Below, one piece after another: positions 8,895 through 54,718 of a stretch of DNA of 64,000 bases; position 1 is the stretch's first letter; the number at the start of each line of letters is the position of its first letter. The stretch spans positions 32,001-96,000 of the forward strand of contig CAVUXE010000054.1 of NCBI GenBank assembly GCA_963745235.1, written 5' to 3'. The notes under the pieces were generated by a model. It saw nothing but the letters and a program-made list of their open reading frames with translations, was not told where the DNA came from and searched no databases. The stretch comes from an uncultured Spirochaetota bacterium. Its GTDB lineage: Bacteria; Spirochaetota; Spirochaetia; SZUA-6; Fen-1364. The position numbers and the translations under genes were made by a program.

Positions 8895-8916
8895 TACATG
8901 AGTATATAGTCATATA
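8895..8916. promoter_or_regulatory. putative ArsR operator upstream of arsC
   Basis: AT-rich imperfect inverted repeat TACATGA-gtatatag-TCATATA in the arsR-arsC gap, overlapping a TATACT -10-like hexamer on the minus strand. Confidence 0.55.
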
Positions 8917-8935
8917 CAGCCGCGGGTCAACCGGC

Positions 8936-16275: not shown

Positions 16276-16753
16276 GCGCCCTCGACGGTTGCTCGCCTTT
16301 CAAACGGGCGTATTCGATGAGCGTCAGTGCGATGAGGAGCGCATCCAGCACGGAGAGGGCAATGAGGAACGTGGAGTGAGTCGAGGTCCAGCGGAATACC
16401 TGGTAGGCGATGAAGACCCCCAGGACGGCGACAGCCACCGGGTAGGCCCAGAGCTTCCGCCTCCAGAGGAGGAGAACCAGGACCACCTTCACGAGGCCGT
16501 GGGAAAGCAGGTAGAAGACGCCGAACTGCTGGGCGTCCACGGTGTAGCGCTGGCCCAGGCCCACCAGGAGATTGGCGATGTAGTCCTGCGGGTCCTCGGC
16601 AAGCTCGTTCTGCGTCAGGACCTGGATCCACGTGTCCAGCGTGGCGGGCTTGATGAACCAGAGGAGCACGCCGCCAATCACTTCCAACCCCGCGTGGATG
16701 CCCTTGAGCAGGATGGCGACCTCGAACCCGACGTGAAAGATGGCCTTTTTCAC
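16268..16753 (-). CDS. DUF2127 family membrane protein
   Basis: LLKG..LEVIGG, ELAEDPQD, YLLSHGLVK, WAYP, EY near the C-terminus. Confidence 0.8.
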   Translation of the reverse strand: MKKAIFHVGFEVAILLKGIHAGLEVIGGVLLWFIKPATLDTWIQVLTQNELAEDPQDYIANLLVGLGQRYTVDAQQFGVFYLLSHGLVKVVLVLLLWRRKLWAYPVAVAVLGVFIAYQVFRWTSTHSTFLIALSVLDALLIALTLIEYARLKGEQPSRAHG

Positions 16754-19940: not shown

Positions 19941-19951
19941 CCGCCGCCTTC

Positions 19952-22440: not shown

Positions 22441-22449
22441 CGGGGATCC

Positions 22450-24999: not shown

Positions 25000-25023
25000 C
25001 AGGGTGAGTATATTAGTGTGAGT

Positions 25024-25884
25024 ATGGTCTCGCAGTCCATCCATCCCGAGACGCTCATCGGGCCGGTCACGATTCGAGTGGCTGACGCTTCCCGTTCGCT
25101 TCGCTTTTACCAGGAAGCCCTTGGTTTCAGGCCCGTCGGCCACGTTGCCGGCCTGCCCGCGCTCGGGGCGCCGGGAATGAGGGACGGTGCACCCGTGGTC
25201 GTGCTGAAGGAGGTCCCGGGAGCGCGCCCCGCGCGTCATGCATCGGGCCTCTATCACTTCGCAGTCCTGCTCCCCGGCCGCCCTGCCCTGGCAAGGGCGC
25301 TTCGCCGGCTCGCCAGGGCGCAGGTCTCCATCGGTCAGGCGGACCACCTGGTCAGCGAAGCCCTGTATCTCTCCGACCCTGACGGCAATGGGATCGAAAT
25401 CTACCGCGACAGGCCGCGTGACCAGTGGGGGTGGGATGACGGCAGAGTCCGGATGGCAACCGACCCCCTGGACCTGGAGGACCTGCTTCGGGAAGCGGAG
25501 AGCGAGCCGGACTCGCCGGACGCGCTCCCGCCGGGCACCCGCACCGGCCATGTGCACCTGCAGGTTTCCGACGTGCAGGAAGCGGTCCAGTTCTACCATG
25601 GCATCCTTGGCTTCGACATCGTTGCAGCCTGGCAGGGGGCCGCTTTCCTCAGCGCCGGCGGCTATCACCATCACATCGGGTTGAACAGCTGGGGCTCCCG
25701 CGGCGCGCCCCCGGCTCCACCGGGCGCAACGGGCCTGGAGTCGTTTGTTATCAAGGTTCCCGACACGGAAGAGCAGTCGCGTCTTGCCGAACGGCTGCGA
25801 GAAGCCGGAGTCCCGGTTGAGGAAACCGACGGCGTTCTTCGCGCCCGCGATCCGTGGAACGTCGGCCTGGAGGTGATGCCGTGA
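25024..25884 (+). CDS. VOC family, CatE-like extradiol dioxygenase
   Basis: GLYHFAVLLP, DHLVSEALYLSDPDGNGIEIYRDRP, GHVHL, FLSAGGYHHHIGLN. Confidence 0.88.
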   Translation: MVSQSIHPETLIGPVTIRVADASRSLRFYQEALGFRPVGHVAGLPALGAPGMRDGAPVVVLKEVPGARPARHASGLYHFAVLLPGRPALARALRRLARAQVSIGQADHLVSEALYLSDPDGNGIEIYRDRPRDQWGWDDGRVRMATDPLDLEDLLREAESEPDSPDALPPGTRTGHVHLQVSDVQEAVQFYHGILGFDIVAAWQGAAFLSAGGYHHHIGLNSWGSRGAPPAPPGATGLESFVIKVPDTEEQSRLAERLREAGVPVEETDGVLRARDPWNVGLEVMP

Positions 25885-33951: not shown

Positions 33952-33989
33952 AAAGACTTTACTCCGCGGAATTCCATGATATACTCAAC

Positions 33990-34024
33990 TTCTAAATAGC
34001 GAAACAGACTTCCGCATAGTCGAA
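33990..34024 (+). promoter_or_regulatory. tandem operator-like site (IclR candidate) upstream of the aminotransferase operon
   Basis: TTCTAAATAGCGAAA-cagac-TTCCGCATAGTCGAA just downstream of a TGaTATACT -10 box; second copy at 45388-45422. Confidence 0.65.
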
Positions 34025-34045
34025 AAGAATGTCCGGAGGGAATCC

Positions 34046-35217
34046 GTGAAGCCTTTGACCCTTATGGTCCCCGGTCCTGTCCAGGTAAGCACGCCCGTCT
34101 TGAACCGCATGGCGGCAACGCAGGTGCCCCACTATGGGGAAGAGGCCATTGGGGCCTACAACGCGTGTATCGAGCGCCTGCGGCCCCTGTTCGGCCTCGG
34201 AGACAGCGGAAACATCTACATCTTCCCCGGCTCGGGGAGCATCGCAAACGAGGTCTGCTCCGCCACGTTCATCCGCCCGGGGGATGAGGTCATCGTGGCC
34301 ACCAACGGCACCTTCGGCGAAAGGGTGAGGGACCAGGCGGCCTCCTACGGCGCGCAGATCGTTCACGTGAAGGCTGATGAGGGAAAGCCGGTGACCGCGG
34401 ACATGATCGAGGATGCCGTCCGCGCCCATCCGGGCGTCTCGCTGATCATGGCCGTCCACCTCGAGACATCCACCGGCGTCCTCAATCCCATCCAGGCCAT
34501 TGGCGCAGTTGCGGGCAGGCACCGCATTCCGTTTTGCAGTTGATGCGGTTTCTTCCTTCGGGACAGAAAGAATCGACATGGAGAAGTGGAACATCTCCAT
34601 TTGCGCCACAGCCACCCAGAAGGGGCTGGAGTCTCCGCCGGGCCTGGGCATCGCCGCGGTGAGCAGGGCAGGCTGGGAGATTCTCCTCGATCGCAAAACC
34701 ACCGGAACCGGCTGGTTCCTGAACCTCCTTCTATGGAAGAAAGTGCAGGAAGGCAAGGAGATCCGCAAGGGAGTCGTTTATCCCCTGCCCGGTGACCATG
34801 CCTGTGAACAATGTCTACGCCCTCCTGGAGAGCCTGGAAGAGATTGGAAGGGAGGGGTGGGAGGCGCGGCTCCTGCGTCACCAGAGAATGGCGCAGGCCG
34901 TGCGCCAGGGGATGCAGTGCATGGGCTTTCAGCTCTTCCCTGAGGAAGGCTGCTGCGCTAATGCAGTCACCTCCGTCCGCAACAATCTCCCCATCCAGGT
35001 CTCCGAGCTCATCGGTTTTCTCAAGGATTTCGTTCACACCGAGATCAGCAACGGGCTCTTCGAGCTGTACAACAAGCTGATCAGGATAGGCCATATCGGG
35101 CAGACCGCGGAACGGGAGCACGTCGTGCCGGTTCTTTTCGGGATCGAGCATTTCCTGAGGAAAAAAGGCGTGAACCTTGCGCTGGGTTCGAGCCTTGTGG
35201 GCATTGAACGACTCTGA
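34046..35217 (+). CDS. class V aminotransferase (alanine-glyoxylate/serine-pyruvate type), apparent frameshifts near 34535 and 34790
   Basis: LMVPGPV, NGTFGER, VHLETSTGVLNP; middle frame VDAVSS, TATQKGLESPPGL (PLP Lys); last frame IRIGHIG. Confidence 0.88.
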
Positions 35218-35708
35218 AAACCGTTTCAAGGAGGTGTGGCATGAAGAAACGAATCCTGGCACTGGCGCTCGTTCTCCTGTGCCTCGGAGGGATGGCGTTC
35301 GCCGCGGGCGACGCTCCGGTGAGGGTGATCATCATCCCCCCCGCCCGGTTGACCCCTGGCTATCTGGGTGATGGAGCCGGGGCCATTTTCGCCAGCTTCG
35401 TGTATGACTGGCTGTTCAGGATCAACGGGCAGACCGGCAAGGTCGAGCCGTCCCTCGTTGAATCCTACACGATGTCACCTGATGCGAAGGTGTGGACCAT
35501 GAAGCTCCGCAAGGGGGTCAAGTTCCATCACGGCACCGTCTTCACCGCGGATGACGTCACCTATACGGTCAACAGGTGGCTGGACAAGAAGCTCGGGATG
35601 GTCCCCAACGGGGTGTTTGGAAGCCTCATCCAGAAGGTCGAGAAAGTGGACCCCTACACCGTCAGGTTCACCCTGACCCAGACGGACGTCGACTTCAACC
35701 TGAAGCTG

Positions 35709-37198
35709 GGGAGCGATTTCAATAAGTAGGTAGATTTACGCTGCCCGGTCCAGCGTGGCCAGGAAATCCTGCAGATGGCGGCCGCTTGCAATGGAGCTGC
35801 GGATCTGCAGCATCCCGTCTGCCCCTGTCTCCGACCACGTCATGCCTCCCTGCTTCATTCGGCCCGCGATGACGTTCTTACAGGCACTCTCGATGGTGCC
35901 GCTGCCAATGGGAAGGCGGGCACCACGGTAGACGTCATACTGCATCCTTTCTTTGTTGTCGGTGAAATAGTCGATCTGCCCTTGGATGAGGTCGCGGTAG
36001 TCCCTGTGCTCAACCATGTCACGAATCACATGCAATTCTTGGAGGAACGTCTCGACTTTTCCTTCCCAGAGGGTGGTTTTCCAAGCTTTGAAATGTTTCC
36101 AGTACTCGGGAGTCTGTTCGCCATAGAGTTTCTTGCACAGCTCCGAGACGTGCTCGCAGGCGTGATAGAAATCCAGAATGAAGGTGCTGTTGGGCGGAGC
36201 AAGCTCAACGAAACGATCCCAGATCCACTTCGCCCCATCAGCCAGGAACACCAGCCGCGTCTTTTTCACATCCTCCGCTCGGCGTTGCACCTCCACCGTC
36301 AAGCGCTTGAAGAACTCATCGGCGTGTTCGATGCCGCTGACGTAGCTGCTGGCTGTGCAAAACGCCTCCTGCTGCTTTTCGTCCCAGCCAATCGAGGAGA
36401 CCGCCCCCACCTTCACATCGCGCCACACGGTCGGGCAAGTTCTTTTGCCATCAACACTTCGCTCTTCCTCTCCTCGCTGGCGAAGCTTCGTGGCATCCAC
36501 CGACACTGCCATCCGCTCCTTGATCACATTCTCTTTGGCTATGAGCTGCCTCTTGTCGAAGACCTGCGCGATCTCCTCTTGTCGCAGCCCCTCCAGACGC
36601 TCGCCCAACTCTGCGTCCATGTCCAAGGACTTCCTCAAGGAGATCAGCTCCGTTGCATCAGGGCGAAAGATCTCGTGAAACCGATCCAGGCTCTTTTGAT
36701 AGGCCTCCCGCCCTGTAAAGGAGGAGAGAAAGTACTGGCAGCCGGGAGTGTGTCGCATCTGGATTCCCAGTTTCTCATCCTGGGGAAAGTATCCCCCACC
36801 GCCTTCTTGCTTACTGAAGTAGTAGGCTCGCCGGTATTCGACCATCCCGAATAGTCCGTGAAGACTGGTCCTGCGGTAGCCTACGAACTTGTACTTCCGA
36901 GCGTCTTTGCGAATGACGGCTCCCTCATAGCCCGTGTCCAACTGCTCGAAGACGGCGCCCATGGTTGCGCGTCCCAGTCTCATGAGGAACTCCAGAAGGT
37001 TCTTCTCGGTCAGAAACATGTCGCTGCTGTCGGTGATCTTCAGCCCATATGCTGCCTTGAAGTTTTCAAGGATTTGCGTTACCAGAGAATCCATTGTCCT
37101 TTCCCTCCCAGCTTCGAGATTTTTGCCAGTGGTAGTTTACCACGCGCTGGGAGGGACCTTTCTAGCCCCAAAACTACCAACAGCCGGAATTTGCACCC
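35709..37198 (-). mobile_element. insertion sequence, prokaryotic Mutator-like (ISKra4/ISLre2 group), 1490 bp
   Basis: Imperfect terminal IRs (GGGAGCGATTTC.. and GGGTGCAAATTC.., 18/28 matches); flanking direct repeat CTGAAGCTG at 35700-35708 and 37199-37207. Confidence 0.92.
35736..37094 (-). CDS. DDE transposase (ISKra4/ISLre2-like)
   Basis: VSVDA, LADGAKWIW, ILDFYHACEH, RMQY, IGSGTIESACK, RMK..GM.W. Confidence 0.92.
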   Translation of the reverse strand: MDSLVTQILENFKAAYGLKITDSSDMFLTEKNLLEFLMRLGRATMGAVFEQLDTGYEGAVIRKDARKYKFVGYRRTSLHGLFGMVEYRRAYYFSKQEGGGGYFPQDEKLGIQMRHTPGCQYFLSSFTGREAYQKSLDRFHEIFRPDATELISLRKSLDMDAELGERLEGLRQEEIAQVFDKRQLIAKENVIKERMAVSVDATKLRQRGEEERSVDGKRTCPTVWRDVKVGAVSSIGWDEKQQEAFCTASSYVSGIEHADEFFKRLTVEVQRRAEDVKKTRLVFLADGAKWIWDRFVELAPPNSTFILDFYHACEHVSELCKKLYGEQTPEYWKHFKAWKTTLWEGKVETFLQELHVIRDMVEHRDYRDLIQGQIDYFTDNKERMQYDVYRGARLPIGSGTIESACKNVIAGRMKQGGMTWSETGADGMLQIRSSIASGRHLQDFLATLDRAA

Positions 37199-38271
37199 CT
37201 GAAGCTGCTGGACTACAACACGCCCATGCTCGCGCACGACTATGACAATGACAAGCTCGGAGAGACAAAGCCCTCCGGCACGGGCGCCTACCAGGTCGAG
37301 ACCCTCGTTCCCAAGGAAAGGGTCGTCTTCAAGGCGAACACGAGCTACTGGGTGAACGGGGCTCCGGGCCTGGACAGGATAGAGCTCCTCTTCATCCCTG
37401 ACACAGAGACCGAGATCAAGATGATGGAGTCCGGCCAGGCGGATGTCGTCACCGACATCAGCGTGGACCAGTACAAGAGACTCAACGCGAACCCCGCTAC
37501 CACGGGCCTGTACATAAAGCTGGGGCACCATGTCCCCATCTCCATGAGGACCGACATTCCTCCCTTCAACGACCCGAAAGTCCGCATGGCAATGAAGCTG
37601 GTTGTCGACAGGCAGAAGATGCTGGACACCGTCATGTTCGGCATGGGGTCCCTGGGAAATGATTCCCCCATTGCCCCCTTCCATCCCTACTATGACGACC
37701 TGGGCGGAATCAGGCAGAGGGACATCGGGAAGGCCAAGGCCCTCCTTGCGCAGGCGGGGTACACCGACAAGAACCCCCTGAGCGTCACGTTGTATTGCAG
37801 CTCGAACACCCCGCCGGAGCTGGATGTCGCGCTGGCCTTCCAGCAGATGGCGAAGGACGCCGGCATTGACGTCGAGATCAGCACCTCACCCCGGGATGTC
37901 TACTATGCCAAGCACTGGCTGAAGGAGACCCTGACCGCCACCCTGTGGGGCCACAGGGAGGACGTGACCCAGCTCCTGAGGCTTGCCTACATGAGCGGCG
38001 GCCCGTGGAACGAGGGGCACTACGCCAACCCGGAGCTGGACAAGAACATTCAGCTTGCCACCTCCACAACGGACACCGCGAAGCGCAAGGAATACTTCAA
38101 GAACATCCAGCAGATCCTGGCGGATGACGGTCCTTCAATCATTTCCTTCTTCCAGCCCTACTTCGGGGCTACGTCGAAGCGGATCAAGGACTTCTATCTC
38201 ACCCGCAACTGGATCAACGACTACCGCTTCATGAAGCTCGCGGCGCCGCAGTAGAGCGCCATCTCCGCCAC

Positions 38272-38305
38272 GGCTCCTCCCGGCCCTCGCGGGTCGGGAG
38301 GAGCC
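38272..38305 (+). terminator. intercistronic stem-loop after the SBP gene
   Basis: 15-bp stem GGCTCCTCCCGGCCC / GGGTCGGGAGGAGCC (one G-U pair), 4-nt loop, short TCTTT tail. Confidence 0.7.
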
Positions 38306-38322
38306 TCTTTCGAGGACACGGG

Positions 38323-39267
38323 ATGATACGGTACGGCTTGAAAAGACTCGGTCTCATTCTCGTCTCTCTTTTCGTCGCCTCCATCATCATCTTCCTCATC
38401 ACCGAGATCATTCCCGGAGACGTTGCGCAGATGATCCTCGGTCAGAACGTCACCCCTGATGCCCTGGCCGCCCTGCGTGAGCGCCTTGGCCTGATGAACC
38501 CGCCCGCCGTCCGGTACCTGCACTGGATCGGTGGGGTCCTGCAGGGCAACCTGGGAGACTCCCTGTCCATGCAGGGCGTGGGCATCGCGGACCTCATTGC
38601 CCGACGAGGGCTGAACTCGCTCTTCCTCGCCGCCGCCTCCACCATCCTGCTGGTCCCTCTCTCACTGTTCATGGGCGTGATTGCCGGGCTGAAGGAAGAC
38701 AAATGGCCTGACAGCGTGATCTCCACCCTTTCCCTGATCGCCATTTCCCTTCCGGAGTTCATCTCAGGCACTTTCCTCATGCTCGTGTTCAGTGTGTGGC
38801 TGAGGTGGCTGCCGGCTGCAAGCGCAATCAATTCGGATGTGAGCCTCTTCCGACAGCTCCCCCTGCTGGTCCTCCCCATCGTCACCGTGTCCCTGGTCCT
38901 CCTGGGGTACGTTGCGCGCATGGTCCGCGCAAGCGTCATAGAAGCCTCGCGGTCTCCCTACGCGCGGAGCGCCATCCTCAAGGGGCTGCCGCCTTTCCTC
39001 GTGAACAGGAGGCACATCCTCAGGAACGCGCTTCTTCCGTCGGTCACCATCATCGCGATGAACATCGGCTGGCTGTTCGGGGGCATCATCATCGTGGAAT
39101 CCGTCTTCGGCTTCCCGGGATTGGGAAGCCTCGTCCTCTTTGCCATTCAGCAGCGGGACGTGCCTCTCATCGAGGACGTCGTCCTCCTGATGGCCGCGGC
39201 ATACCTTGTCCTGAACCTGCTTGCTGACGTCGTCTATGCGCTGCTCAATCCGAGGATCAGGTACTGA
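38323..39267 (+). CDS. peptide/nickel ABC permease (DppB-like)
   Basis: IPGDVA, GNLGDS, YARSAILKGL, HILRNALLP, ESVFGFPGLG, LNPRIRY. Confidence 0.92.
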   Translation: MIRYGLKRLGLILVSLFVASIIIFLITEIIPGDVAQMILGQNVTPDALAALRERLGLMNPPAVRYLHWIGGVLQGNLGDSLSMQGVGIADLIARRGLNSLFLAAASTILLVPLSLFMGVIAGLKEDKWPDSVISTLSLIAISLPEFISGTFLMLVFSVWLRWLPAASAINSDVSLFRQLPLLVLPIVTVSLVLLGYVARMVRASVIEASRSPYARSAILKGLPPFLVNRRHILRNALLPSVTIIAMNIGWLFGGIIIVESVFGFPGLGSLVLFAIQQRDVPLIEDVVLLMAAAYLVLNLLADVVYALLNPRIRY

Positions 39268-39269
39268 CA

Positions 39270-40193
39270 ATGAGCACGGCACGCCCCGCCCGTGACGCAT
39301 CCTGTCCCGAGAACGAGGAGCCGAGGCTCCAGCAGATTGTCGGCGCCGTGGGGAGGACCCTGCGGTCGTTCGCGGACACGGTGCGTCGCCTGTGCGCTTC
39401 CCGTGCCGCGCTCATCAGCATGATCATCCTGGTCTTCTGGCTCCTCATGTCCGTCATGGGGCCCGCCATTGCCCCCTATGATTCGGCAAAGCACAACCTG
39501 GCGGACCGGTTCACGGGTCCGTCCCTCCAGCACCTGTGCGGCACCGACCGGTTCGGGCGTGACGAGTTCAGCAGGATCATCCTGGGAAGCCGCACGGTCT
39601 TCCTGCTTGCCGCTTCCTCCACCCTGGTAAGCCTTCTCATCGGCACCTCCGTGGGGCTGGCCTCGGGATATGCGGGCGGGACCGTGGATGAGGTCATCAT
39701 GAGGTTCACCGACATCCTCATGTCATTCCCGTCGCTCCTGTTCGCCATGCTCATGCTGGGCATCATGGGTCCAACGTTCATCGGGGTCGTCATCGTCATC
39801 GCAATCGTGTTCTTTCCCCGAATAGCCCGGGTGGTCAGGAGCGTGGTCCTGGACCTCAAGACGAAAGAGTTCGTGGAAGCCGCCAAGGTGCGGGGGGAGA
39901 GCGGCTTCTACATCATGTTCGTGGAGATACTTCCCAACACCCTTGGCCCTCTTGGCGTGGAGGCGGCGGTGAGGTTCGGGTATGCCATCTTCACCAGCGC
40001 CTCCCTGGGGTTTCTCGGGCTCGGCGTCCAGCCGCCCACCCCGGACTGGGGGCTCATGATGAGCGATGCGCAGGCGTACGTGACAACGGCGCCGTGGATG
40101 GCCATCTTTCCCGCCCTTGCAATCGCCAGCCTCACCGTGGCAGTGAACTTCCTGAGCGACGCCATCCGGAAGCTGGAAAGCGGTGACCTGTAA
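39270..40193 (+). CDS. peptide/nickel ABC permease (DppC-like)
   Basis: HLCGTDRFGRD, EFVEAAKVRG, LGFLGLGVQPPTPDWG. Confidence 0.92.
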   Translation: MSTARPARDASCPENEEPRLQQIVGAVGRTLRSFADTVRRLCASRAALISMIILVFWLLMSVMGPAIAPYDSAKHNLADRFTGPSLQHLCGTDRFGRDEFSRIILGSRTVFLLAASSTLVSLLIGTSVGLASGYAGGTVDEVIMRFTDILMSFPSLLFAMLMLGIMGPTFIGVVIVIAIVFFPRIARVVRSVVLDLKTKEFVEAAKVRGESGFYIMFVEILPNTLGPLGVEAAVRFGYAIFTSASLGFLGLGVQPPTPDWGLMMSDAQAYVTTAPWMAIFPALAIASLTVAVNFLSDAIRKLESGDL

Positions 40194-40194
40194 C

Positions 40195-42279
40195 ATGGGG
40201 ACGCGAATGCCCGTGGATGACATCCTTCAGATCCGGGACCTCGAAGTCTCCTACAGCACACGGTCCGGCACCCTGCGCGCCATTCGGGATCTGAGCCTGA
40301 GCCTCCGGAGGAACGAGACCTACGGAGTGGTTGGAGAGTCCGGCTGCGGGAAGAGCACTCTTGCATTCGCCATCATGGGATACCTGGAAAGAAACGGCGC
40401 CGTCACCCGCGGGGAGATCCTTTTCAACGGAGAGGACCTCCTGAAGAAGTCCCGCTCCGAGATGCGCGCGCTGTGGGGAAAAAAGATATCCATGATTTAC
40501 CAGGACCCCACGGCGGCCCTCAACCCGTCCCTCACCGTGGGCCTCCAGATCGCAGAGATCCTCCAGGTGCACCAGGGCCAGTCCTGGGATGCGGCGCGGA
40601 GGCAGGCTGTGTCCATGCTTTCCCGCCTGCAGATTGCTGATCCCGAGATGATTGCGGACCGCTATCCCCACCAGCTTTCCGGTGGCATGCGCCAGAGGGT
40701 GTGCATCGCCATGGCTTTCATCATGAAGCCGGACCTCCTCATCCTGGATGAGCCCACCACGAACCTGGACGTCACCACGGAGGCCAACATCCTGGACATG
40801 CTGAACGATCTGAAGAACGATTTCAGCGCGACCACCCTCTACATCTCCCACGACCTGGGAGTGGTGTACAAGGTCTCCGACCGGGTGGGGGTCATGTACG
40901 GGGGGAGGTTCGTCGAAGAGGGGTACATCGCGGACATTATCTGCTCACCCAAGCATCCGTACACCAAGGGGCTCCTGCGCTGTATCCCCGAGGTGCTGCT
41001 GGACAAGAGCAAGAGACGCCTGACCCCGATCCCCGGAAGCGTGGCGGAGCTCGGCGCCATGCCGTACGGGTGCGCCTTTACCCCCCGGTGCGCCCACCGC
41101 ACGGAGAAGTGCCAGCGTGAAAACCCTGAACGGATGCCTTTCGGCGGGGACAGGCTTGTCCGCTGCCACTACACGCGGGAGATAGATGAGCAGGAGAGGA
41201 AGGCGCCCGCCTGCGATGAAGAGCCGCAGAGGCCGGAATGCGAGGACCTGGGCGAGCGGGGGTTCGCCTCGGCGCTGCTTTCACTCACCCGCGTGCAAAA
41301 ACACTATGGGGACCTCACGTCTCTCTTTGCCCGCGGCAGCGCGCGGAAAGTCCGCGCGGTGGACGACGTGTCCCTGATCATCCCGGGCCGCTCCACCCTG
41401 GGACTGGTCGGGGAAAGCGGCTGCGGGAAAAGCACTCTGCTGAGAGTGATTGCCGGCCTCGAAGCTGCCACGGGGGGAAGCCTCGTCTTTGACCAGCAGG
41501 ACATCTCGGTGCCCATCGGGAAGCGAAAACGCGGCATGGCCAAGCGGATCCAGGTTGTGTTCCAGGACCCCCGCTCCACATTGAACCCCCGCAAGACCAT
41601 CGGGCAGGCGATCATGAGACCCATCAGGCTCACGGGCCTTTCCTTCCGGGAGGCGGAGCAGCGCGCGCGTGAGCTGCTGGAATCCGTGAACCTGGGGTGC
41701 GAGTTCCTGGACCGCTTCCCCGAGCAGCTGAGCGGCGGGCAGAAGCAGCGCATCGCCATCGCCCGCGCGTTTGCGAGCAACCCCGACCTGATTCTCTGTG
41801 ATGAGCCGACCTCCAGCCTGGACGTTTCAATCCAGGCGTCCATCATCAACCTCCTCCTGGAGCTGCAGAAAGAGAAGGGCACCACGTATCTTTTCATCTC
41901 CCACGCCCTGGGCGTGGTGAGCTATCTCTGCGACACCATGGCGGTGATGTACCTGGGGGCAATCGTGGAGCACGGCCCGAAGAACAAGGTCCTCTCTCCG
42001 CCCTATCACCCGTACACCGAAGCGCTCCTCTCCTCCCTGTCGGTCCCCCGGCCCAACGCGTCCCAGGAGCGCATACGCCTGGAAGGCTCGGTCCCCAGCG
42101 CCCGCGAGATCCCCAGCGGGTGCAGGTTCCACACCCGCTGTCCACGCAAGGCCGGCAGGATCTGTGAAACAACGGAGCCCCCACGGGTCACGACGGATGG
42201 CGACAACGACCATTTCCTGTACTGCCACATTCCCCTGGAGGAATTGAGGCGCATGAAGCCGGTTTTCAAGGAGGTATGA
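40195..42279 (+). CDS. fused double ABC ATPase (DppD+DppF)
   Basis: Two GESGCGKS, LSGG and DEPT sets, each followed by HPYT and a Cys-rich oligo_HPY tail. Confidence 0.92.
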   Translation: MGTRMPVDDILQIRDLEVSYSTRSGTLRAIRDLSLSLRRNETYGVVGESGCGKSTLAFAIMGYLERNGAVTRGEILFNGEDLLKKSRSEMRALWGKKISMIYQDPTAALNPSLTVGLQIAEILQVHQGQSWDAARRQAVSMLSRLQIADPEMIADRYPHQLSGGMRQRVCIAMAFIMKPDLLILDEPTTNLDVTTEANILDMLNDLKNDFSATTLYISHDLGVVYKVSDRVGVMYGGRFVEEGYIADIICSPKHPYTKGLLRCIPEVLLDKSKRRLTPIPGSVAELGAMPYGCAFTPRCAHRTEKCQRENPERMPFGGDRLVRCHYTREIDEQERKAPACDEEPQRPECEDLGERGFASALLSLTRVQKHYGDLTSLFARGSARKVRAVDDVSLIIPGRSTLGLVGESGCGKSTLLRVIAGLEAATGGSLVFDQQDISVPIGKRKRGMAKRIQVVFQDPRSTLNPRKTIGQAIMRPIRLTGLSFREAEQRARELLESVNLGCEFLDRFPEQLSGGQKQRIAIARAFASNPDLILCDEPTSSLDVSIQASIINLLLELQKEKGTTYLFISHALGVVSYLCDTMAVMYLGAIVEHGPKNKVLSPPYHPYTEALLSSLSVPRPNASQERIRLEGSVPSAREIPSGCRFHTRCPRKAGRICETTEPPRVTTDGDNDHFLYCHIPLEELRRMKPVFKEV

Positions 42280-43739
42280 AGGTGGACGTCAACGCGCAGT
42301 TCTGCTACTGGGAAAGGCCGAAGCTCAGGGTGCTCTCCGACAGGCAGAGAGAGACCATCTACGGATCCGCGCTGGAGGTCCTGGAAAGGACGGGCGCAAA
42401 GCTGTACTCTCCGCGGGCTCTCACTCTCCTGCAGGAGGCCGGCGCCGAGGTCATTGATGATCACCTGGTGAAGATCCCCTCCGGCGTCGTGGAGAACGCG
42501 GTGGCAAGCGCCGGAAAGAGAGTGGTCCTTGCTGACCGCACGGGGAAGAGGAAGCTCGTCCTTGAAGGGGACAACATCTTTTTCGGTCCGGGCTCAGACA
42601 ACCCGTCCACAATTGACCTGGACACGCAGGAACGGCGCACCAGCGTCCTGAAAGACGTGGAGAGGGGGGCGCGGCTTGCCGACGCCCTCCCGAACATCGA
42701 CTTCCTCATGTCCTTCGCGCTGGCAAGCGATGTCCCCTCCAAGGCCGCTGATGCCTGCCACTTCGAGGCCATGGTCAGCAACTCCACCAAGCCCATCACC
42801 GCCACCGCCCCGGACCTGGACGGCTTGAAGGCAATCTACGAGATTGCGTGCGCGGTGAGCGGCGGGGAGGCGAAGTTCAGGCAAAACCCGTTCTTCATCC
42901 TCTACGAGCAGCCCCACTCGCCGTTGAAGCACGCCGGGCATTCCCTGGACAAGCTCATCTTCTGCACGGAGAAAGGCATCCCGGTCCTGTACGCATCAAC
43001 GCCGTCCATCGGCGCGGCGAGCCCCGTGACCCTTGGCGGGAGCTTCGTGCTGAACATGGCGGAGTACCTCACTGCCCTGGTCCTGGTGCAGCAGGTGAAG
43101 CGCGGGGCGACCCTGGTGTTCGGCGGGGGGCCCACCACGCTGGACATGAGGACCACCGTCTATTCGTACAGCGCGCCGGAGACAATGCTCAGTCTGTGCG
43201 TCCGCAAGGAGCTCGGAGAATACCTGGGCATTCCCGTCTTCAACGCCGGGGGCTTCAGCGATTCGCAGCTTCCGGACCAGCAGGCTGCCCTTGAATGCGC
43301 CTCGTCCCTGATCTACGCGGCCATGGCGGGAGGGAACCTCATTCATGACGTCGGATACCTTGCCTCCGGGATGACGTCGTCCCTGGAGATGCTCACGATC
43401 TGCGACGAGCAGATCTCCCAGGTGAAGCGGTTCCTGCGCAGCTTTGCGGTGGACACCGAATCCCTGGCGGTGGATCTCATAGACCAGGTGGGCCCCGAGG
43501 GAGATTTCCTTGCAACGGATCTCACCCTGAACAGGTTCAAGGAAGAGATCTGGTCCCCCACCATCATTGATCGAAACATTCACGAGAGATGGAAGTCGGC
43601 CGGCAGCACGACGCTGCGGGACAGGGCCCGGGAAAAGGCGAGGGGGCTCCTGACCAGCCACCAGCCGCAGTGCCTCCCGGAGGACGTGAAGAAGGGCGTA
43701 CGCGCTATCGTGAAGAGGTACGAGCAGAGTCGTTCGTAA
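42276..43739 (+). CDS. trimethylamine methyltransferase (MttB) superfamily, non-pyrrolysine member
   Basis: SALEVLERTG, SPL, SPVTLGG, DMRT...SAPE, GGFSDSQLPDQQAALE, NLIHDVG, VGPEGDFL, ERW..AG; no in-frame TAG. Confidence 0.9.
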   Translation: MKVDVNAQFCYWERPKLRVLSDRQRETIYGSALEVLERTGAKLYSPRALTLLQEAGAEVIDDHLVKIPSGVVENAVASAGKRVVLADRTGKRKLVLEGDNIFFGPGSDNPSTIDLDTQERRTSVLKDVERGARLADALPNIDFLMSFALASDVPSKAADACHFEAMVSNSTKPITATAPDLDGLKAIYEIACAVSGGEAKFRQNPFFILYEQPHSPLKHAGHSLDKLIFCTEKGIPVLYASTPSIGAASPVTLGGSFVLNMAEYLTALVLVQQVKRGATLVFGGGPTTLDMRTTVYSYSAPETMLSLCVRKELGEYLGIPVFNAGGFSDSQLPDQQAALECASSLIYAAMAGGNLIHDVGYLASGMTSSLEMLTICDEQISQVKRFLRSFAVDTESLAVDLIDQVGPEGDFLATDLTLNRFKEEIWSPTIIDRNIHERWKSAGSTTLRDRAREKARGLLTSHQPQCLPEDVKKGVRAIVKRYEQSRS

Positions 43740-44487
43740 GGACCTCGAACATCGCCCCTTTTATCTCTTCGATGCGGGCCGGCGTCATTCGGAACGCCGG
43801 CCCCGTGACGCTGATGGCCGCGACAACCCTGCCGTTCATGTCCCGGTAGGGCATGGCAACGCAGACCACCTCGTTTCGAAACTCCTCTGCATCCAGGGCA
43901 TACCCGTTCCTGCGGATCTCCGCGAGCTTCCTGCGAAGCTGCCCCGTGGAGGAAATGGATTTCGACGTGTAGGCCGGCAGAGCGGTGCCCGGCGGAAAGA
44001 GCTTTTCCAGGACCGGCTGATCCAGGCTGGCCAGCAGCACCTTGCCCAGGGCGGTGCAGTGGGCAAGGAGCTTCGTGCCGATCTGGATGTCTGTCTTCAG
44101 CACGTGAGGGCTGTCGATCTTGGCGATGTAGGCGATCTCTTTCATCCCCTGGTCCAGGACCGCAAGGTTGATGGTCTCCTGCGTCTTGCTCGCCAGGGTT
44201 TCCAGGCGCCCCATGGCTTCATTCATCACGTCGCTCTGGTTCTGATACACGCATCCCAGCTCGAACGCCTTCAGCCCCAGGCGGTATTTGCCCCGCTGGA
44301 GCGCCTGCTCGATGTAGCCGCGGTTCTTGAGGACGCTCACCGTCCTGTGGATGGTGCTTGCTTTCTTGCCCAGGAGCCCCGCCATCTCCGTGATGCCCGC
44401 CTCCCGCTTCTCAGCGGAGAACAGCTCCAGGACGTTCAGGGCGACGTCGATGGATGTCTGTTTCGGAGGCCGGGGGCGCTTGCTCAC
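43705..44487 (-). CDS. IclR family transcriptional regulator
   Basis: N-terminal HTH (ASTIHR..L...GY...KYRLG), HCTALGKVLLA, GYALDAEE, AAISVTGPAFR; GTGA-coupled to the upstream gene. Confidence 0.92.
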   Translation of the reverse strand: MSKRPRPPKQTSIDVALNVLELFSAEKREAGITEMAGLLGKKASTIHRTVSVLKNRGYIEQALQRGKYRLGLKAFELGCVYQNQSDVMNEAMGRLETLASKTQETINLAVLDQGMKEIAYIAKIDSPHVLKTDIQIGTKLLAHCTALGKVLLASLDQPVLEKLFPPGTALPAYTSKSISSTGQLRRKLAEIRRNGYALDAEEFRNEVVCVAMPYRDMNGRVVAAISVTGPAFRMTPARIEEIKGAMFEVLTNDSARTSSR

Positions 44488-45374
44488 TGGGGAAGACGCA
44501 GGTCCGACGGGCCCCGCGCCGACATGCGAAGCCGGGGGTTCACCCTCCCCGCCAGCTCCTTCATGATCTCGCAATATTTCACTTTCAGTCGGGCGCCGTC
44601 CACGCCCGGACCGAACTCCTGCTTGAAATAGCACGGGGCGCACACGCGGATGATCTCCGCGCCTTCCCAGAACCTGTTGATGGCGCCCAGGTTCTGCTCG
44701 GCAGCCATGGTCACGATGTCCATGGGAACCTTCACCGAAGCGCGGATGGCGGCGAGCATGGGCAGCGTCAGGTCCGACACCGGGTTGATGCTGTCCGCCC
44801 CCGCGGTTTCGGCAAGGCGCGCGCCGGCGGGGTTGGAAACTCCGGCCGTGTAGGAGAGCTTGAAGACGGTGTCCTTCGGGAGGTCACCCGAAAGGCGCAT
44901 CTGGTGGAAAAGCTGCGTCACCTCTTCCCCGTAGAAAAGGAACCCTCGCAGGCCGGCTTCCACGCACCGAAGCACATCCTCGATGAGGTACGCAAGCTGG
45001 TCGGCTCCCCGCACGCGCACCCCCGAGGCGTGTCCCCACGGGGAGTGGTAGTGGCTGCCCACGTCGAAGTTCGCGCGCGGGCCGGGGATCACGATCAGCT
45101 CGATGCGGGCATCCCGCGCAATGCGCGCCAGCGCCTGCAGCTCGCCGAAGGTCAGGCTGTGGGTTCCCGCTCCTATGGCGATGACCCTGTGGATGGGGAT
45201 GTCCCTCCTGCCGCTCTCATCTGCCACGGCCTCCAGCTCTGCCACGGACTCCACGCCGGAGACCTCCATGCGGAACTGGCATCCGTCAGGGAAGGACAGG
45301 GGAGAGGTCGGCAGGTCATAGAGATCGCGTTTGGGAAGCGCGTACTTCGCCAGGAGCTGCTGCGCTCTTTCCAT
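44484..45374 (-). CDS. uncharacterised TIM-barrel protein resembling the 'U32 peptidase-like' family
   Basis: DLPTSPLSFPDG..FRMEV, GPRANFD.G, GLRGFL, FKLS...SNP, GADSINP, LAAIR..V.VPMDI, APCYFK. Confidence 0.6.
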   Translation of the reverse strand: MERAQQLLAKYALPKRDLYDLPTSPLSFPDGCQFRMEVSGVESVAELEAVADESGRRDIPIHRVIAIGAGTHSLTFGELQALARIARDARIELIVIPGPRANFDVGSHYHSPWGHASGVRVRGADQLAYLIEDVLRCVEAGLRGFLFYGEEVTQLFHQMRLSGDLPKDTVFKLSYTAGVSNPAGARLAETAGADSINPVSDLTLPMLAAIRASVKVPMDIVTMAAEQNLGAINRFWEGAEIIRVCAPCYFKQEFGPGVDGARLKVKYCEIMKELAGRVNPRLRMSARGPSDLRLPQ

Positions 45375-45387
45375 GGGTGCCTCGCTT

Positions 45388-45422
45388 TTCTACTATATGG
45401 AAGTATATTCCTCTATTTTGAA
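45388..45422 (-). promoter_or_regulatory. tandem operator-like site (IclR candidate) upstream of the U32-like/IclR operon
   Basis: Minus strand reads TTCAAAATAGAGGAA-tatac-TTCCATATAGTAGAA, just downstream of a TTGACA (45433-45428); matches 33990-34024. Confidence 0.65.
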
Positions 45423-46795: not shown

Positions 46796-48574
46796 ATGGA
46801 GCACATGAAGAGAACCGACACCTGCGGAGCGCTTCGCGCAAAAGACGCCGGCAGACGCGTCACCTTGAACGGCTGGGTGCACAGGCACCGCGACCATGGC
46901 GGAATCAGGTTCTTCGATCTGCGGGACCGTTATGGCCTGACGCAGGTGGTGGTGGACTCTGACGCTTCCCCCGAGCTTGCAGAGACCGGCAAGCAGCTGA
47001 AGTTCGAATACTGCGTGGCCGTGGAGGGCGCCGTGCGCGCTCGCCCGGCTGCCATGGCGAACCCGAACTTGCCCACCGGGGAGATCGAGGTCAAGGCGGA
47101 CAAGATCTCCATCCTGAGCCGCTGCGAGGTCCTTCCGTTCATGGTGGATGAGAAGGCGGACGCAAAAGAGGACACCCGGTTCAAGTATCGCTACATAGAC
47201 CTGCGCACGGCGCGCATGCAGCGCAACATTGCGCTGCGTCACGCCGCGGCGTTCGCGGCCCGAGAGTTCCTTGTGTCGCGCGGGTTTTACGAGATCGACA
47301 CCCCCCTGTTCATCAAGTCCACCCCGGAAGGCGCTCGTGACTACCTTGTGCCATCCCGCTTGAACCCGGGCCGGTTCTACGCGCTTCCCCAGTCTCCGCA
47401 GCTCTACAAGCAGATCCTGATGGTGTCCGGGTTCGACAAGTACTTCCAGATTGCCCGGTGCTTCCGTGATGAGGACGCGCGCGGTGACAGGCAGCCCGAG
47501 TTCACCCAGATCGACATCGAGATGAGCTTCGTGTCGCGTGAAGACGTGTTCCTCCTGGTCGAAGGCCTGATGGCTCATATCTTCAAGAAATCCATAGGCA
47601 AGGACATCACGGCCCCGTTCCAGAGGCTTGCCTATGAGGAGGCCATGAACCGCTTCGGCTCGGACAAACCTGATCTCAGGTTCGGCCTGGAATTGCATGA
47701 CTTCGGGGACTTCGCGAAAAAGGGCGGCTTCGAGGTCTTCAAGAAAGTCGTGGAGTCCGGAGGCGCGGTGAAAGCCCTCGTCGCCACGGGATGCGGGGAG
47801 TACTCCCGCAAGCAGATCGGGGAGCTGGAGGCGGTGGCCAAGGTCTACGGCGCGGCGGGGCTTGCCTCCATGAAAGTGACGGCGCAGGGCCTGGAAGGCG
47901 GCGTCTCCAAGTTCTACGCGGAACAGGCTGGGCCCATGTGCGCGGAGCTGGGCGCAAAACCCGGGGACCTCATCCTCATGGTGGGAGCTGACCTCAGAAA
48001 GGCCTGCATTTCCCTGGGAGCCATCCGCGCGCAGTTGGGGAAGGACCTCAAGCTTGCCGCGGAAGGTGACTTTCGGTTCTGCTGGATCATCGATTTCCCC
48101 CTTTTCGAATGGAACGAAGAGGAGAAGAGGTGGGACCCCGCGCACCACATGTTCACCATGCCGCAGGAAAGGTTCGTGGCGGATTTCGAGAAGAGACCTG
48201 CAGAGGTCAAGGGAGATCTGTACGACCTGGTGTGCAACGGCGTAGAGCTTGCCTCGGGGTCCATCAGGATCCACGACGCCGATCTGCAGAGGAGGATCTT
48301 CACGTTCCTCGGCTTCTCCGAAGAAGAGGCGCAGAGCCGCTTCGGCTTCCTCCTGGAAGCCTTCCGCTACGGCCCGCCTCCCCACGGCGGGATAGCCCCA
48401 GGCTTCGACAGGCTCGTGGCCATGATGGCCGGGGAGCCCACCATAAGGGAGGTCATCGCATTCCCCAAGAACACCCTGGGTCAAAGCCCCATGGATGATT
48501 GTCCCTCGGAAGTGGATTCCAAGCAGCTTCGGGATCTCCATCTCAGCATCATCAGGGAAGAGCCGGCACAGTGA
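46796..48574 (+). CDS. aspS: aspartate--tRNA ligase (RDHGG suggests a non-discriminating type)
   Basis: GWVHRHRDHGG, YRYIDLR, STPEGARDY, ALPQSPQ, RCFRDED, RQPEFTQ, PPHGGIA, VIAFPK. Confidence 0.97.
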   Translation: MEHMKRTDTCGALRAKDAGRRVTLNGWVHRHRDHGGIRFFDLRDRYGLTQVVVDSDASPELAETGKQLKFEYCVAVEGAVRARPAAMANPNLPTGEIEVKADKISILSRCEVLPFMVDEKADAKEDTRFKYRYIDLRTARMQRNIALRHAAAFAAREFLVSRGFYEIDTPLFIKSTPEGARDYLVPSRLNPGRFYALPQSPQLYKQILMVSGFDKYFQIARCFRDEDARGDRQPEFTQIDIEMSFVSREDVFLLVEGLMAHIFKKSIGKDITAPFQRLAYEEAMNRFGSDKPDLRFGLELHDFGDFAKKGGFEVFKKVVESGGAVKALVATGCGEYSRKQIGELEAVAKVYGAAGLASMKVTAQGLEGGVSKFYAEQAGPMCAELGAKPGDLILMVGADLRKACISLGAIRAQLGKDLKLAAEGDFRFCWIIDFPLFEWNEEEKRWDPAHHMFTMPQERFVADFEKRPAEVKGDLYDLVCNGVELASGSIRIHDADLQRRIFTFLGFSEEEAQSRFGFLLEAFRYGPPPHGGIAPGFDRLVAMMAGEPTIREVIAFPKNTLGQSPMDDCPSEVDSKQLRDLHLSIIREEPAQ

Positions 48575-49575
48575 ACAGGCGGGAAAGGGTGGAAGCCGCA
48601 ATCCGTCACACGCAGCCGGACAAGGTGCCGTATCACGTGAGCTTCACCGTTCCCGCGCGGGAGGCAATGGCCCGCTGGTACGGAGACGACGATTTCGAGG
48701 CCTCCCTGGGCAACTGCCTGCTCATGCTGGAGACCGAGCCGGCTGGCTCCTGGCGCCGGGTGCATGACGAGATCTGGGAGGACCAGTTCGGCGTCCAATG
48801 GGACAGGACAATCGACGCGGACATCGGCACGGTCTGCAACACCCGGCTCACCCGGGAGAGCCTGAAGACCTGTCCGTTCCCTGACCCGCTGGACCCTGCG
48901 CGCTTCGAGGGGTGGGGAGCCCGCCTCGCGGCCCGCGGTGATTCCTTCGTTGTCGCGAGCATCGGGTTCAGCCTTTTCGAACGGGCGTGGACCCTTGCCG
49001 GCATGGAGACCGTGCTCATGGCGATGGCGGACGACAAGCCGTTCATCAATGAGCTCCTGGACCGCATCCTGGATTTCAACCTGACGCTCATAGAGAAAGC
49101 CTGTTCGTATCCCATAGACGCCATGCGCTTCGGGGACGACTGGGGCCAGCAGCGCGGGCTCATCATGGGTCCGGCCCTGTGGCGGGAGCTGATTGGTCCC
49201 CGGGTGAGGCGCATGTACCAGCTCGTCAAGTCCCGGGGCAAGAAAGTCTTCATCCATTCCTGCGGCAAGGTGGATGAGCTCTTTCCGGACCTGATAGAGA
49301 GCGGGCTGGACGTGTTCAACCCGTTCCAGCCGGAGGTCATGGACGTGGAGGACATGAAGAGGCGCTACGGCTCCCGGCTGTCATTCTTCGGCGGCATCAG
49401 CACCCAGAAGACGCTTCCGTTCGGCACGGTGGAGCAGGTGAAGGAAGAGGTGAAGGCGCTTTTGGAAAGGGTCGGCAGGAACGGCGGGTATATCGCCTCA
49501 CCCGCGCATGACGTTCCCAAGGATGCAAAGCCAGAGAATATCGCCGCGATGATCGAGGTGCTGCAAGGGCAATAG
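48571..49575 (+). CDS. uroporphyrinogen decarboxylase family protein (UroD/MtaA-like)
   Basis: DQFGVQW, FERAW, FGDDWGQQ, FIHSCG, NPFQPE, GGISTQ..LP.GT, GYIASPAH, ENI. Confidence 0.88.
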   Translation: MNRRERVEAAIRHTQPDKVPYHVSFTVPAREAMARWYGDDDFEASLGNCLLMLETEPAGSWRRVHDEIWEDQFGVQWDRTIDADIGTVCNTRLTRESLKTCPFPDPLDPARFEGWGARLAARGDSFVVASIGFSLFERAWTLAGMETVLMAMADDKPFINELLDRILDFNLTLIEKACSYPIDAMRFGDDWGQQRGLIMGPALWRELIGPRVRRMYQLVKSRGKKVFIHSCGKVDELFPDLIESGLDVFNPFQPEVMDVEDMKRRYGSRLSFFGGISTQKTLPFGTVEQVKEEVKALLERVGRNGGYIASPAHDVPKDAKPENIAAMIEVLQGQ

Positions 49576-53701: not shown

Positions 53702-53979
53702 ATGAGGTTCCAAACCAGTCTGGACGCAAGCTCTCCCTCCCGCAGGAGTTCGTTTTTTTACAATACTCGCTGCTGGGGAAGCTCTATCTTCTGCCCTGGA
53801 ATGAAGGTTGGTGACCTTGTATGGAGTCTTCAACGCCGCATCTGTGCTAGAGGAGCTTCTTGACCCCTGCGTGGATTGATTCTCATATTAGCTGCAGTGG
53901 ACAAGCGGCTGGCGGCGGTAAAGCGGATCGCGGAGACGGTCCACGCCCGGCGGGTGGTCGCCGGTGACCGGTGAGGAGG

Positions 53980-54718
53980 ATGGAGATGGCTGAGCACCGG
54001 GTGTTGTCGCATGACAAGTGGGTCGAGGCACGGAAGAAGCACCTCGCCAAGGAGAAGGAGTTCACGCGGCTGCGCGACCAGCTGAGCCGCGAGCGCCGCG
54101 AGCTGCCCTGGGAGTTGGTGGAGAAGGAGCTACACGTTCGCGGGCGAGCGCGGCACGCAAACTCTGAGCGACCTGTTCGACGGCCGGAGCCAGCTGGTCG
54201 TCTACCACGCCATGTTCAACCCCGAAACCGCGGGACCGAAGACGACGTGGACGGTCGACGCCCCCTGCTTCTCCTGCTCCTTCTGGATGGACAACTTCAA
54301 CGGCATCACCGTCCACCTCAACCACCGCGACATCACGATGGCCGCCGTCTCTCGCGCGCCCTATCCGGCGATCGCCACCTACAAGAAGCGCATGGGCTGG
54401 GGCTTTCCCTGGTACTCGTCGGCAGGCAGCGATTTCAACTTCGACTACCGCGTCTCCTTCACCGATGCCGAACGCGCCGCCGGGAAGGTGGACTACAACT
54501 ACGGCATGAACTCGTGGAGCTCGATGTCGGAGGCGCCGGGCATCAGCGTCTTCCTCAAGGGCGGAGATGGCCGCATCTTCCACACCTACTCCACCTACGC
54601 GCGCGGGCTTGACATGCTGAACGTCGCCTACCACTACATGGACCTGGCGCCGAAGGGTCGAGACGAAGGGGACTCGGGCCAAAGGTGGGTTCGCCGCCGC
54701 GACGAGTACCCGGACTGA
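53980..54718 (+). CDS. DUF899 family thioredoxin-like protein, apparent frameshift near 54128
   Basis: LAKEKEFTR.RD.L...RRELPW..V.K; second frame CFSCSF, SRAP, YKKRMGW, SDFNFDY, FHTYSTYARG, DLAPKGRDE, WVRRRDEY. Confidence 0.88.

Follow-up and report, generated by a model that had tools for sequence, protein, structure and literature searches.

A tandem site shared by two convergent transcription units and a candidate IclR regulon around an MttB-like protein in an uncultured Spirochaetota bacterium

Genes and paired sites at the locus

We analysed a stretch of 64,000 nucleotides (nt) from an uncultured Spirochaetota bacterium (GenBank assembly GCA_963745235.1, contig CAVUXE010000054.1, positions 32,001 to 96,000 of the forward strand), hereafter the window. 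Positions below refer to the window unless a locus is named. Two convergent transcription units in this stretch each carry a closely similar tandem site upstream. The plus-strand unit encodes a class V aminotransferase, a Dpp-type ABC importer (substrate-binding protein, two permeases and a fused ATPase) and a protein of the MttB superfamily; the minus-strand unit encodes an uncharacterised protein of 296 amino acids (aa) and an IclR-family regulator. A preliminary description of the locus had named these genes and proposed that a single IclR regulon serves the breakdown of an N-methylated amino compound. Searches with Pfam and NCBIfam upheld its gene calls for the class V aminotransferase, the family-5 substrate-binding protein, dppB, dppC, dppDF, the mttB-like gene and iclR.

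Both 38-nt strings quoted in that description were found exactly, at 33990-34027 on the plus strand (O-AT) and at 45422-45385 on the minus strand (O-X), and a position-by-position count gave 30 identical positions out of 38. Each site consists of two 15-nt TTC-N9-GAA-like units (33990-34004 and 34010-34024 in O-AT, 45422-45408 and 45402-45388 in O-X). The unit starts are 20 nt apart in O-AT and O-X alike, as had been described, and one of the four units, 33990-34004, ends in AAA rather than GAA. A degenerate 38-nt pattern allowing at most three mismatches matched O-AT and O-X and nothing else in the window, and 100 dinucleotide-preserving shuffles gave 0 matches. The motif is thus rare within these 64 kb (two matches against none expected). 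The single 15-nt unit TTCNNNATAGNNGAA, with at most one mismatch, occurs 8 times in the window, where 1.44 matches are expected; four of the occurrences make up O-AT and O-X, and the remaining four stand alone within coding regions. The second family-5 ABC operon of the window (16750-25674, minus strand) carries no copy of the tandem site.

The regulator gene (43705-44487, minus strand) encodes 260 aa with an HTH_IclR domain (PF09339, 1.6e-10) and an IclR_C domain (PF01614, 2.8e-40). Its likely start codon, GTG at 44487-44485, overlaps the TGA stop of the 296-aa gene as GTGA, which makes the two genes one translationally coupled unit. At its other end iclR meets mttB: the convergent 3′ ends overlap by 35 bp (43705-43739) and therefore leave no room for separate terminators between the two units.

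According to PMC8222616, tandem palindromes with centres 18-22 nt apart are predicted for 94 orthologous groups of the IclR family, a layout that fits tetramers. With centres 20 nt apart, O-AT and O-X fall inside the range given there, and the pairing proposed earlier can be recognised as the standard IclR tandem arrangement of that source. A further likeness to IclR regulators that bind tandem operators as tetramers, such as TtgV, is that the regulator gene lies within the regulated unit.

Conservation and context of the tandem site

For comparison we used 80 loci that encode relatives of the 296-aa protein, numbered L001 onward. An IclR orthologue (70-71% identical) directly follows the 296-aa gene only in L002 and L003. 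The tandem-site pattern was likewise found in only two of the 80 loci, just upstream of the 296-aa gene in L002 (388-422) and L003 (3184-3218). Motif analysis of homologous upstream regions, suggested in the preliminary description, thus shows the site kept in exactly the two other loci that retain iclR. In a four-way alignment the site stands out as an island of identity between diverged flanks. L003 ends inside the binding-protein gene, and among the IclR-type carriers the upstream region on the aminotransferase side is seen in the window only.

A different regulator occupies the same place in other loci. In L004-L006 a GntR/FCD gene lies directly upstream of the 296-aa gene, and a TGGT-N3-ACCA palindrome, located after a TTGACA hexamer, is found in place of the IclR site (L004 at about 9900-10000, L005 at about 9900-9990, L006 at about 2290-2385). 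A GntR/FCD gene is also present in L010. The local regulator and its operator have been exchanged together, and the structural genes are unchanged. Regulator type and site type change together in L002-L006, and among the indirect evidence this exchange speaks most strongly for assigning the TTC-N9-GAA pair to IclR.

The position of the site relative to predicted promoters was similar in most copies. A sigma-70-like promoter (TTTACT-16-TATACT, 33958-33985, plus strand; a consensus match only, at 9 of 12 positions) precedes the aminotransferase-dpp-mttB operon, in a region where the scan found one promoter and 0.2 are expected. O-AT begins 5 nt past its -10 hexamer, and 18 nt separate its end from the GTG with which the aminotransferase gene starts. 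The promoter in L002 is a 12/12 match (TTGACA-16-TATAAT) that ends at 380, with the tandem site from 388, and the one in L003 an 11/12 match (TTGACA-16-TATACT) that ends at 3179, with the site from 3184. Thus, in three of four copies (the window's aminotransferase side, L002 and L003) the site starts 5-8 nt after the -10 hexamer. On the 296-aa side of the window, where O-X ends 10 nt before the ATG, a TTGACA hexamer was seen by eye at 45433-45428, 5 nt upstream of O-X, so that the site would overlap the spacer and the -10 region. Either position, past the -10 hexamer or over the spacer and -10 region, fits a repressor. Further upstream, a terminator-like hairpin (45456-45439) lies between the 296-aa gene and a membrane-protein gene (45461 to about 46750, minus strand) directly upstream of it, whose product has an N-terminal HisKA_7TM domain, a PAS domain, no kinase domain and a Cys-rich tail.

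The same positions could be read in another way, in which the 38-nt element works as RNA, namely as a leader or translational operator near the ribosome-binding site that is bound by a protein or a small RNA. Three of the four copies lie downstream of a -10 hexamer and would be transcribed, and the element ends 10-18 nt before the start codon, where it abuts the ribosome-binding site. However, an Rfam search of the leaders at E up to 1 matched no family, and the four leaders fold differently, with no significant or common structure among them (z-scores of -1.68 to +0.53). In addition, TTC...GAA dyads at a spacing of two helical turns are a DNA-binding signature, and the element was found only where IclR is the neighbouring regulator. 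We therefore regard an RNA element as very improbable, and a riboswitch or leader RNA was dropped as an explanation on the missing Rfam match and common fold.

Taken as a DNA site, the tandem element makes it likely that IclR co-regulates both units. The proposed regulon would be small and local, with two transcription units: the 296-aa gene with iclR, which would be autoregulated, and aminotransferase-dppABC(DF)-mttB. Its operator of 35-38 bp would comprise two 15-bp pseudo-palindromes with centres 20 bp apart, that is, two helical turns on one face of the DNA. An IclR tetramer (a dimer of dimers) would occupy the pair of units and block initiation, and a pathway substrate or intermediate would release it. 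Such a design is textbook IclR regulation and adds little by itself.

Several points speak against this assignment. The group-1 IclR consensus reported in PMC8222616 is TYC-N7-8-GRA, and the TTC-N9-GAA units found here are one base longer. The site could also belong to another regulator. The promoter scan gave no complete promoter on the 296-aa side of the window. The IclR version occurs in only three genomes, whose 296-aa proteins are 80-86% identical, and so its conservation is drawn from few and fairly close relatives. Finally, the regulon as sequenced in this genome is probably not functional, as judged from the lesions described below.

The aminotransferase-dpp genes, the 296-aa protein and their linkage

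The aminotransferase gene (34046-35217, plus strand) was assigned to the AGXT/PhnW/BhcA-like branch of class V by Pfam and NCBIfam, but it does not form one intact frame. Pieces of its Aminotran_5 domain are spread over three frames (34046-34543, 34500-34943 and 34792-35217). Compared with the intact orthologue in L005, the gene has two +1 frameshifts, at about 34534 (an extra T in a T run) and about 34789 (CCCGG), whereas the orthologues in L004-L006 are single open reading frames (ORFs) of 388-397 aa. The gene for the family-5 (Dpp/Opp/Nik-type) substrate-binding protein (35241-38254, plus strand) is interrupted by an insertion sequence (IS) that separates an N-terminal part (35241-35708) from a C-terminal part (37208-38254). 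In-silico removal of the IS and one repeat copy restored an open ORF of 504 aa, the length given in the preliminary description; the NCBIfam matches of this protein are all below cut-off. The IS is ISKra4-like and measures 1489 bp (35709-37197, minus strand). Its transposase ORF (35736-37094, minus strand) scores 203.4 bits against NF033572, just under the cut-off of 205, and its terminal inverted repeats are weak. The element is present as a single copy within the window, and the 10-bp direct repeat CCTGAAGCTG borders it on both sides (35699-35708 and 37198-37207). The insertion, with its target duplication, looks like a real event. Downstream lie a DppB/NikB-like permease gene (38323-39267) and a DppC/NikC-like permease gene (39270-40193), both recognised by Pfam and NCBIfam, and a gene for a fused DppD-DppF-like double ATPase of 698 aa with two ABC_tran and two oligo_HPY stretches (40183-42279), all on the plus strand.

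Lesions of this kind would be expected if the locus were a decaying relic without current function, in which the operator pair persists because the decay is recent. The IS, with its intact 10-bp duplication, sits in the binding-protein gene in opposite orientation and is likely polar on dppBCDF-mttB, and the aminotransferase gene carries two frameshifts. On the other hand, dppB, dppC, dppDF, mttB, iclR and the 296-aa gene are all full length compared with their orthologues, and the IS may occur in only part of the population. Both shifts are single extra bases at short runs and may be assembly errors, because at least two other genes of the window, an MFS_3 transporter gene (3781-4999) and a DUF899 gene (53971-54718), both on the plus strand, are likewise split between frames. 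Moreover, decay would touch the window copy alone and leave the cluster in L003, L005, L006 and L010 unaffected. We consider the relic explanation improbable.

The at least four frameshifts in the window could reflect assembly indel errors or widespread gene decay. The second family-5 ABC operon encodes a binding protein, two permeases and two ATPases and adjoins an intact class V aminotransferase gene (16750-18078). An arsenic-resistance-like trio (7417-9301, minus strand) encodes an ArsR-type regulator, an ArsC-like low-molecular-weight phosphatase and an SBF/ACR3-type transporter.

The 296-aa gene (44484-45374, minus strand) encodes a TIM-barrel protein of an uncharacterised family that appears to be a remote relative of peptidase U32 lacking its cysteine motif. 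The protein has no match of its own in Pfam or NCBIfam, and PF01136 did not match it even at E up to 1. A word-index search returned 553 relatives, of which all named ones are called "hypothetical", and a profile search at E up to 1e-3 returned 1022 clusters at 50% identity. No longer, fused forms turned up when these were looked for, which is weak evidence. AlphaFold, run with a 33-sequence alignment, predicts an eight-stranded alpha/beta barrel with a pLDDT of 92. Foldseek against the PDB gave generic TIM-barrel matches only, headed by class II aldolases with a TMq of 0.45-0.50 and a root-mean-square deviation of 6-7 Å, values that are too weak to name a function. The U32 protein Mk0906 (5d88) ranked 26th, with a TMq of 0.46. 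Sequence searches of the PDB with the single protein and with the profile yielded chance matches only (ribosomal protein S13, PPR repeats).

The relation to U32 emerged from more distant members of the family. In the nearest ESM-Atlas clusters 17-24% of the members carry PF01136. We further compared with Pfam 32 representatives picked from the best 150 of the 1022 clusters; the picks are mostly near full length and lower-scoring, three of them lie outside the full-length band, and P0219 and P0171 match part of the profile only. PF01136 was the top weak match (E up to 0.1) in 19 of the 32, and six of these reached its gathering score of 22.4 bits. The match always joined residues of about 125-240 to positions 4-93 of the 233 in the model. 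Of the 33 members of alignment A1, two matched PF01136 at E up to 1. In PMC6747719 a four-cysteine motif, CX6CX15CX3/4C, is described for eight of ten U32 families, and this motif is absent from all 33 A1 members and all 56 full-length representatives. C248 is the only near-invariant cysteine of the family. One of the motif checks used a PROSITE-style U32 signature.

The earlier label "U32-like" therefore holds as a remote and partial superfamily relation, but not as a PF01136 match in the window protein or as possession of the four-cysteine motif. A predicted TIM-barrel fold is common to the 296-aa protein and peptidase U32. The known U32 proteins UbiU/UbiV, TrhP and RlhA are O2-independent hydroxylases, as given in PMC6599085, PMC5727448 and PMC10990095, and their context is RNA or quinone modification, whereas the context of the 296-aa gene is catabolic. 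The U32 relation carries no functional inference from these hydroxylases.

Gene neighbours were readable in 63 of the 80 loci, the gene having been lost by ORF picking in the other 17. Long-form relatives (about 314 aa, 41-49% identical) have neighbours that differ from those in the window. In 14 of the 63 loci, from several phyla, the ketopantoate hydroxymethyltransferase gene panB is no more than five genes away (L006, L007, L008, L014, L028, L046, L050, L052, L059, L061, L064, L069, L074 and L077). Other, lineage-specific neighbours are MTHFR, fumarase, a DHDPS-Fae fusion, SHMT, a glutamine-synthetase-like gene, peptidase S58 and aldehyde:ferredoxin oxidoreductase. Together with invariant Arg, Lys, Glu and Asp residues and the neighbouring transaminase, these genes suggest that the 296-aa protein is an enzyme acting on oxo acids or related carbonyls. 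We also considered a pterin-binding methylcorrinoid:tetrahydrofolate (THF) methyltransferase. The TIM barrel is of about the right size for one, and long-form relatives lie near MTHFR, panB, SHMT and Fae genes; the idea was dropped, as no such structure was among the top Foldseek matches listed.

Linkage between the genes of the two units was assessed by tblastn of the window proteins against the 80 loci. An mttB gene, an orthologous aminotransferase gene or both lie beside the 296-aa gene in eight loci (L001-L006, L009 and L010). These are eight of the nine loci in which the 296-aa protein shares 54% identity or more with that of the window, L011 being the exception, and none of the 71 more distant loci shows the linkage. 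In a maximum-likelihood tree of 81 family members all nine linked copies, the window included, fall in one clade of ten rows (SH-aLRT 97). The linkage label changes twice on this tree, compared with a mean of 8.7 changes after shuffling, and 0 of 500 shuffles were as low. The metagenome-assembled genomes of the linked clade are labelled Spirochaetota, Thermotogota and Chloroflexota, along with one delta proteobacterium. The AspRS of the window reaches 91% identity to proteins without a name, its closest named matches come from Spirochaetia genomes of the same metagenomic kind, and the stretch probably derives from a Spirochaetia lineage. The co-occurrence of mttB and class V aminotransferase genes with 296-aa homologues, a test named at the outset, is thus confirmed for one clade that spans several phyla.

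The arrangement varies within this clade. L003 has the same gene layout as the window. In L005 and L006 the genes for GntR, the 296-aa protein, the aminotransferase, the binding protein, dppB, dppC, dppDF and mttB lie on one strand, and mttB is followed by a gene for a threonine/serine-dehydratase-like pyridoxal phosphate (PLP) enzyme and, in L006, also by RidA. The dehydratase-like enzyme is present in L005, L006, L009 and L011. L010 combines GntR, the binding protein, dppBCDF, a PLP enzyme of the Cys/Met gamma-lyase family, mttB, the 296-aa gene and an AcnX gene whose product resembles cis-3-hydroxy-L-proline dehydratase (362 bits, cut-off 700). In L009, four mttB paralogues occur together with dpp genes and with genes for the dehydratase-like enzyme, methylaspartate ammonia-lyase and a racemase.

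Some of these proteins recall the beta-hydroxyaspartate cycle. BhcR is the best NCBIfam match of the IclR regulator (164 bits, cut-off 350), BhcA is among the best matches of the aminotransferase (184 against 650) and BhcB among those of the dehydratase-like PLP enzyme (157-183 against 550). A counterpart of the aldolase or the imine reductase was not identified, and the likeness is one of broad families only. With every score far under its cut-off, membership in this cycle was dropped.

The MttB-like protein and the proposed pathway

The last gene of the plus-strand unit (42276-43739) encodes an MttB-superfamily protein of 487 aa. It matches PF06253 (293.6 bits, 2e-87) over its full length, with residues 13-484 aligned to profile positions 27-497 of 500. 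The ORF is uninterrupted and has no in-frame amber codon, which identifies the protein as a non-pyrrolysine (non-Pyl) member. Its 379 bits against TIGR02369, the model for MttB proper, fall under the cut-off of 525 and place it outside the trimethylamine methyltransferases so defined. The best solved relative is MtgB (2qne, E 8e-56). MtgB (glycine betaine), MtpB (proline betaine), MtcB (carnitine), MtyB (gamma-butyrobetaine) and MthB (phosphocholine) are likewise MttB-family TIM barrels without an amber codon. A sub-threshold Rfam match to PYLIS_3, the element for pyrrolysine insertion in mttB, lies inside this mttB gene (43254-43353, plus strand; E 0.003, with 31 bits where the gathering score is 38). 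It starts at the codon for Phe327, which is conserved in the cluster-linked orthologues, and the match probably represents residual sequence homology rather than a working element.

In PMC13080624, MtgB is described as binding glycine betaine through cation-pi contacts of Y97 and F356 and through R312 and H348, which hold the carboxylate; R312, and less so H348, is conserved in MtcB, MtpB, MthB and MtyB. We mapped these positions by pairwise HMMER alignment, with an offset of 16 between chain and paper numbering that was derived from matching R, H and F. The equivalent residues of the window protein are S107, F322, H357 and G365, so the His348 equivalent is kept. The same S/F/H/G signature is present in five cluster-linked orthologues (57-88% identical), except that the truncated L002 copy lacks the first position. 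The characterised non-Pyl systems thus have an R312-type Arg where a Phe is found here. They also differ in gene context. Characterised MttB systems use betaine-type transporters. Here the companions are a Dpp-type importer, a class V aminotransferase and a U32-related TIM barrel, and no gene for a corrinoid partner was found nearby. The only candidate for a corrinoid-pathway gene in the window is a URO-D-family ORF 3 kb from the cluster (48499-49575, plus strand), whose C-terminal half is weakly MtaA/CmuA-like (70 bits against a cut-off of 235).

From these data we propose a pathway in which the Dpp-type ABC system would import a small nitrogen compound and the non-Pyl MttB protein would pass an N-methyl group on to a corrinoid protein whose gene lies elsewhere. 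The class V aminotransferase would then turn an exposed or co-resident primary amine into a carbonyl, and the TIM-barrel protein would act on the resulting carbon skeleton, joined in other genomes by the threonine-dehydratase-like PLP enzyme and RidA. We infer the enzymatic steps and the substrate, as well as IclR binding and repression, from sequence. The genes probably encode a conserved breakdown route for a methylated amine. For the model as a whole, a conserved catabolic module with N-demethylation followed by transamination, the balance tips only slightly in favour.

Not all of the evidence agrees with demethylation. All six orthologues, the window protein included, have Phe in place of R312, which makes methyl transfer from a classical acidic quaternary amine doubtful. 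The window and the annotated neighbours in L003, L005, L006, L009 and L010 yielded no gene for a corrinoid protein, a methylcorrinoid:THF methyltransferase or an activase. The term "methylated amine" derives solely from MttB family membership, and one MttB protein with one transaminase gives no account of how a quaternary amine would become a primary one.

Several of these observations would be explained if the cluster were co-regulated but did not demethylate a methylamine, and if the MttB-like barrel had another role, such as to bind or convert an amine that is non-methylated or non-acidic. The compound entering through the Dpp-type importer could then be an amino acid derivative, a hydroxy-amino acid, an opine-like compound or a short peptide, whose skeleton would pass through the transaminase, the dehydratase acting with RidA, and the TIM barrel. 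Consistent with this, no corrinoid partner was found nearby, and of the MtgB residues only the His is kept, the acid-binding Arg and both aromatics having been replaced. The companions in other genomes are amino-acid enzymes (the dehydratase-like PLP enzyme, RidA, the Cys/Met gamma-lyase family enzyme, AcnX, methylaspartate ammonia-lyase and the racemase). The usual ligands of family-5 binding proteins are peptides, opines or nickel complexes, and the NCBIfam matches here are below cut-off. However, the MttB match is full length at 293.6 bits, and all characterised members are corrinoid-dependent methyltransferases according to PMC12155760. In Eubacterium limosum, the same source reports, three different MttB-family enzymes share the corrinoid protein MtqC and the methyltransferase MtqA; since one such pair can serve several pathways, a partner missing nearby is weak evidence and not decisive. 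The four MttB paralogues of L009, which lie around the same genes, also argue against it. We consider a cluster without demethylation rather unlikely.

A bolder version of the demethylation model would make the 296-aa clade the first small-molecule catabolic enzyme of the U32 superfamily, cysteine-motif-less and cofactor-poor, which together with the Arg-less MttB would form an as yet unknown anaerobic route for N-methylated compounds other than carboxylate betaines. Candidate substrates would then include aminophosphonates, amino alcohols or diamines that carry an N-methyl group. Once this had been removed, the PhnW/AGXT-like transaminase would take off the amine, and the TIM barrel would process the aldehyde or oxo acid. 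The wider family, with about 1000 clusters at 50% identity, would then represent a new group of enzymes in the oxo-acid or C1 metabolism of uncultured anaerobes. At present we hold this version to be a long shot.

As to the overall interpretation offered in the preliminary description, gene co-occurrence, rarity of the site within the window and its conservation with IclR stand in its favour, but the U32 label proved to be remote and the module is damaged in this genome. The combination itself had been called undescribed, and in the openly searchable literature we found no description of it. The local regulation is of an ordinary kind; novelty lies in the companions gathered around MttB in this putatively catabolic cluster and in its distinct active-site signature.

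The role of most non-Pyl MttB members has been called an open question in the literature. The present analysis defines an orthologous MttB group by a distinct active-site signature and fixed companions, namely a Dpp-type importer, a class V transaminase and an uncharacterised TIM barrel, with two interchangeable local regulators that have recognisable operators. The binding protein, IclR or GntR, and MttB itself would offer three independent routes to the ligand. For the unannotated family of about 1000 protein clusters to which the 296-aa protein belongs, the cluster would provide a first functional context.

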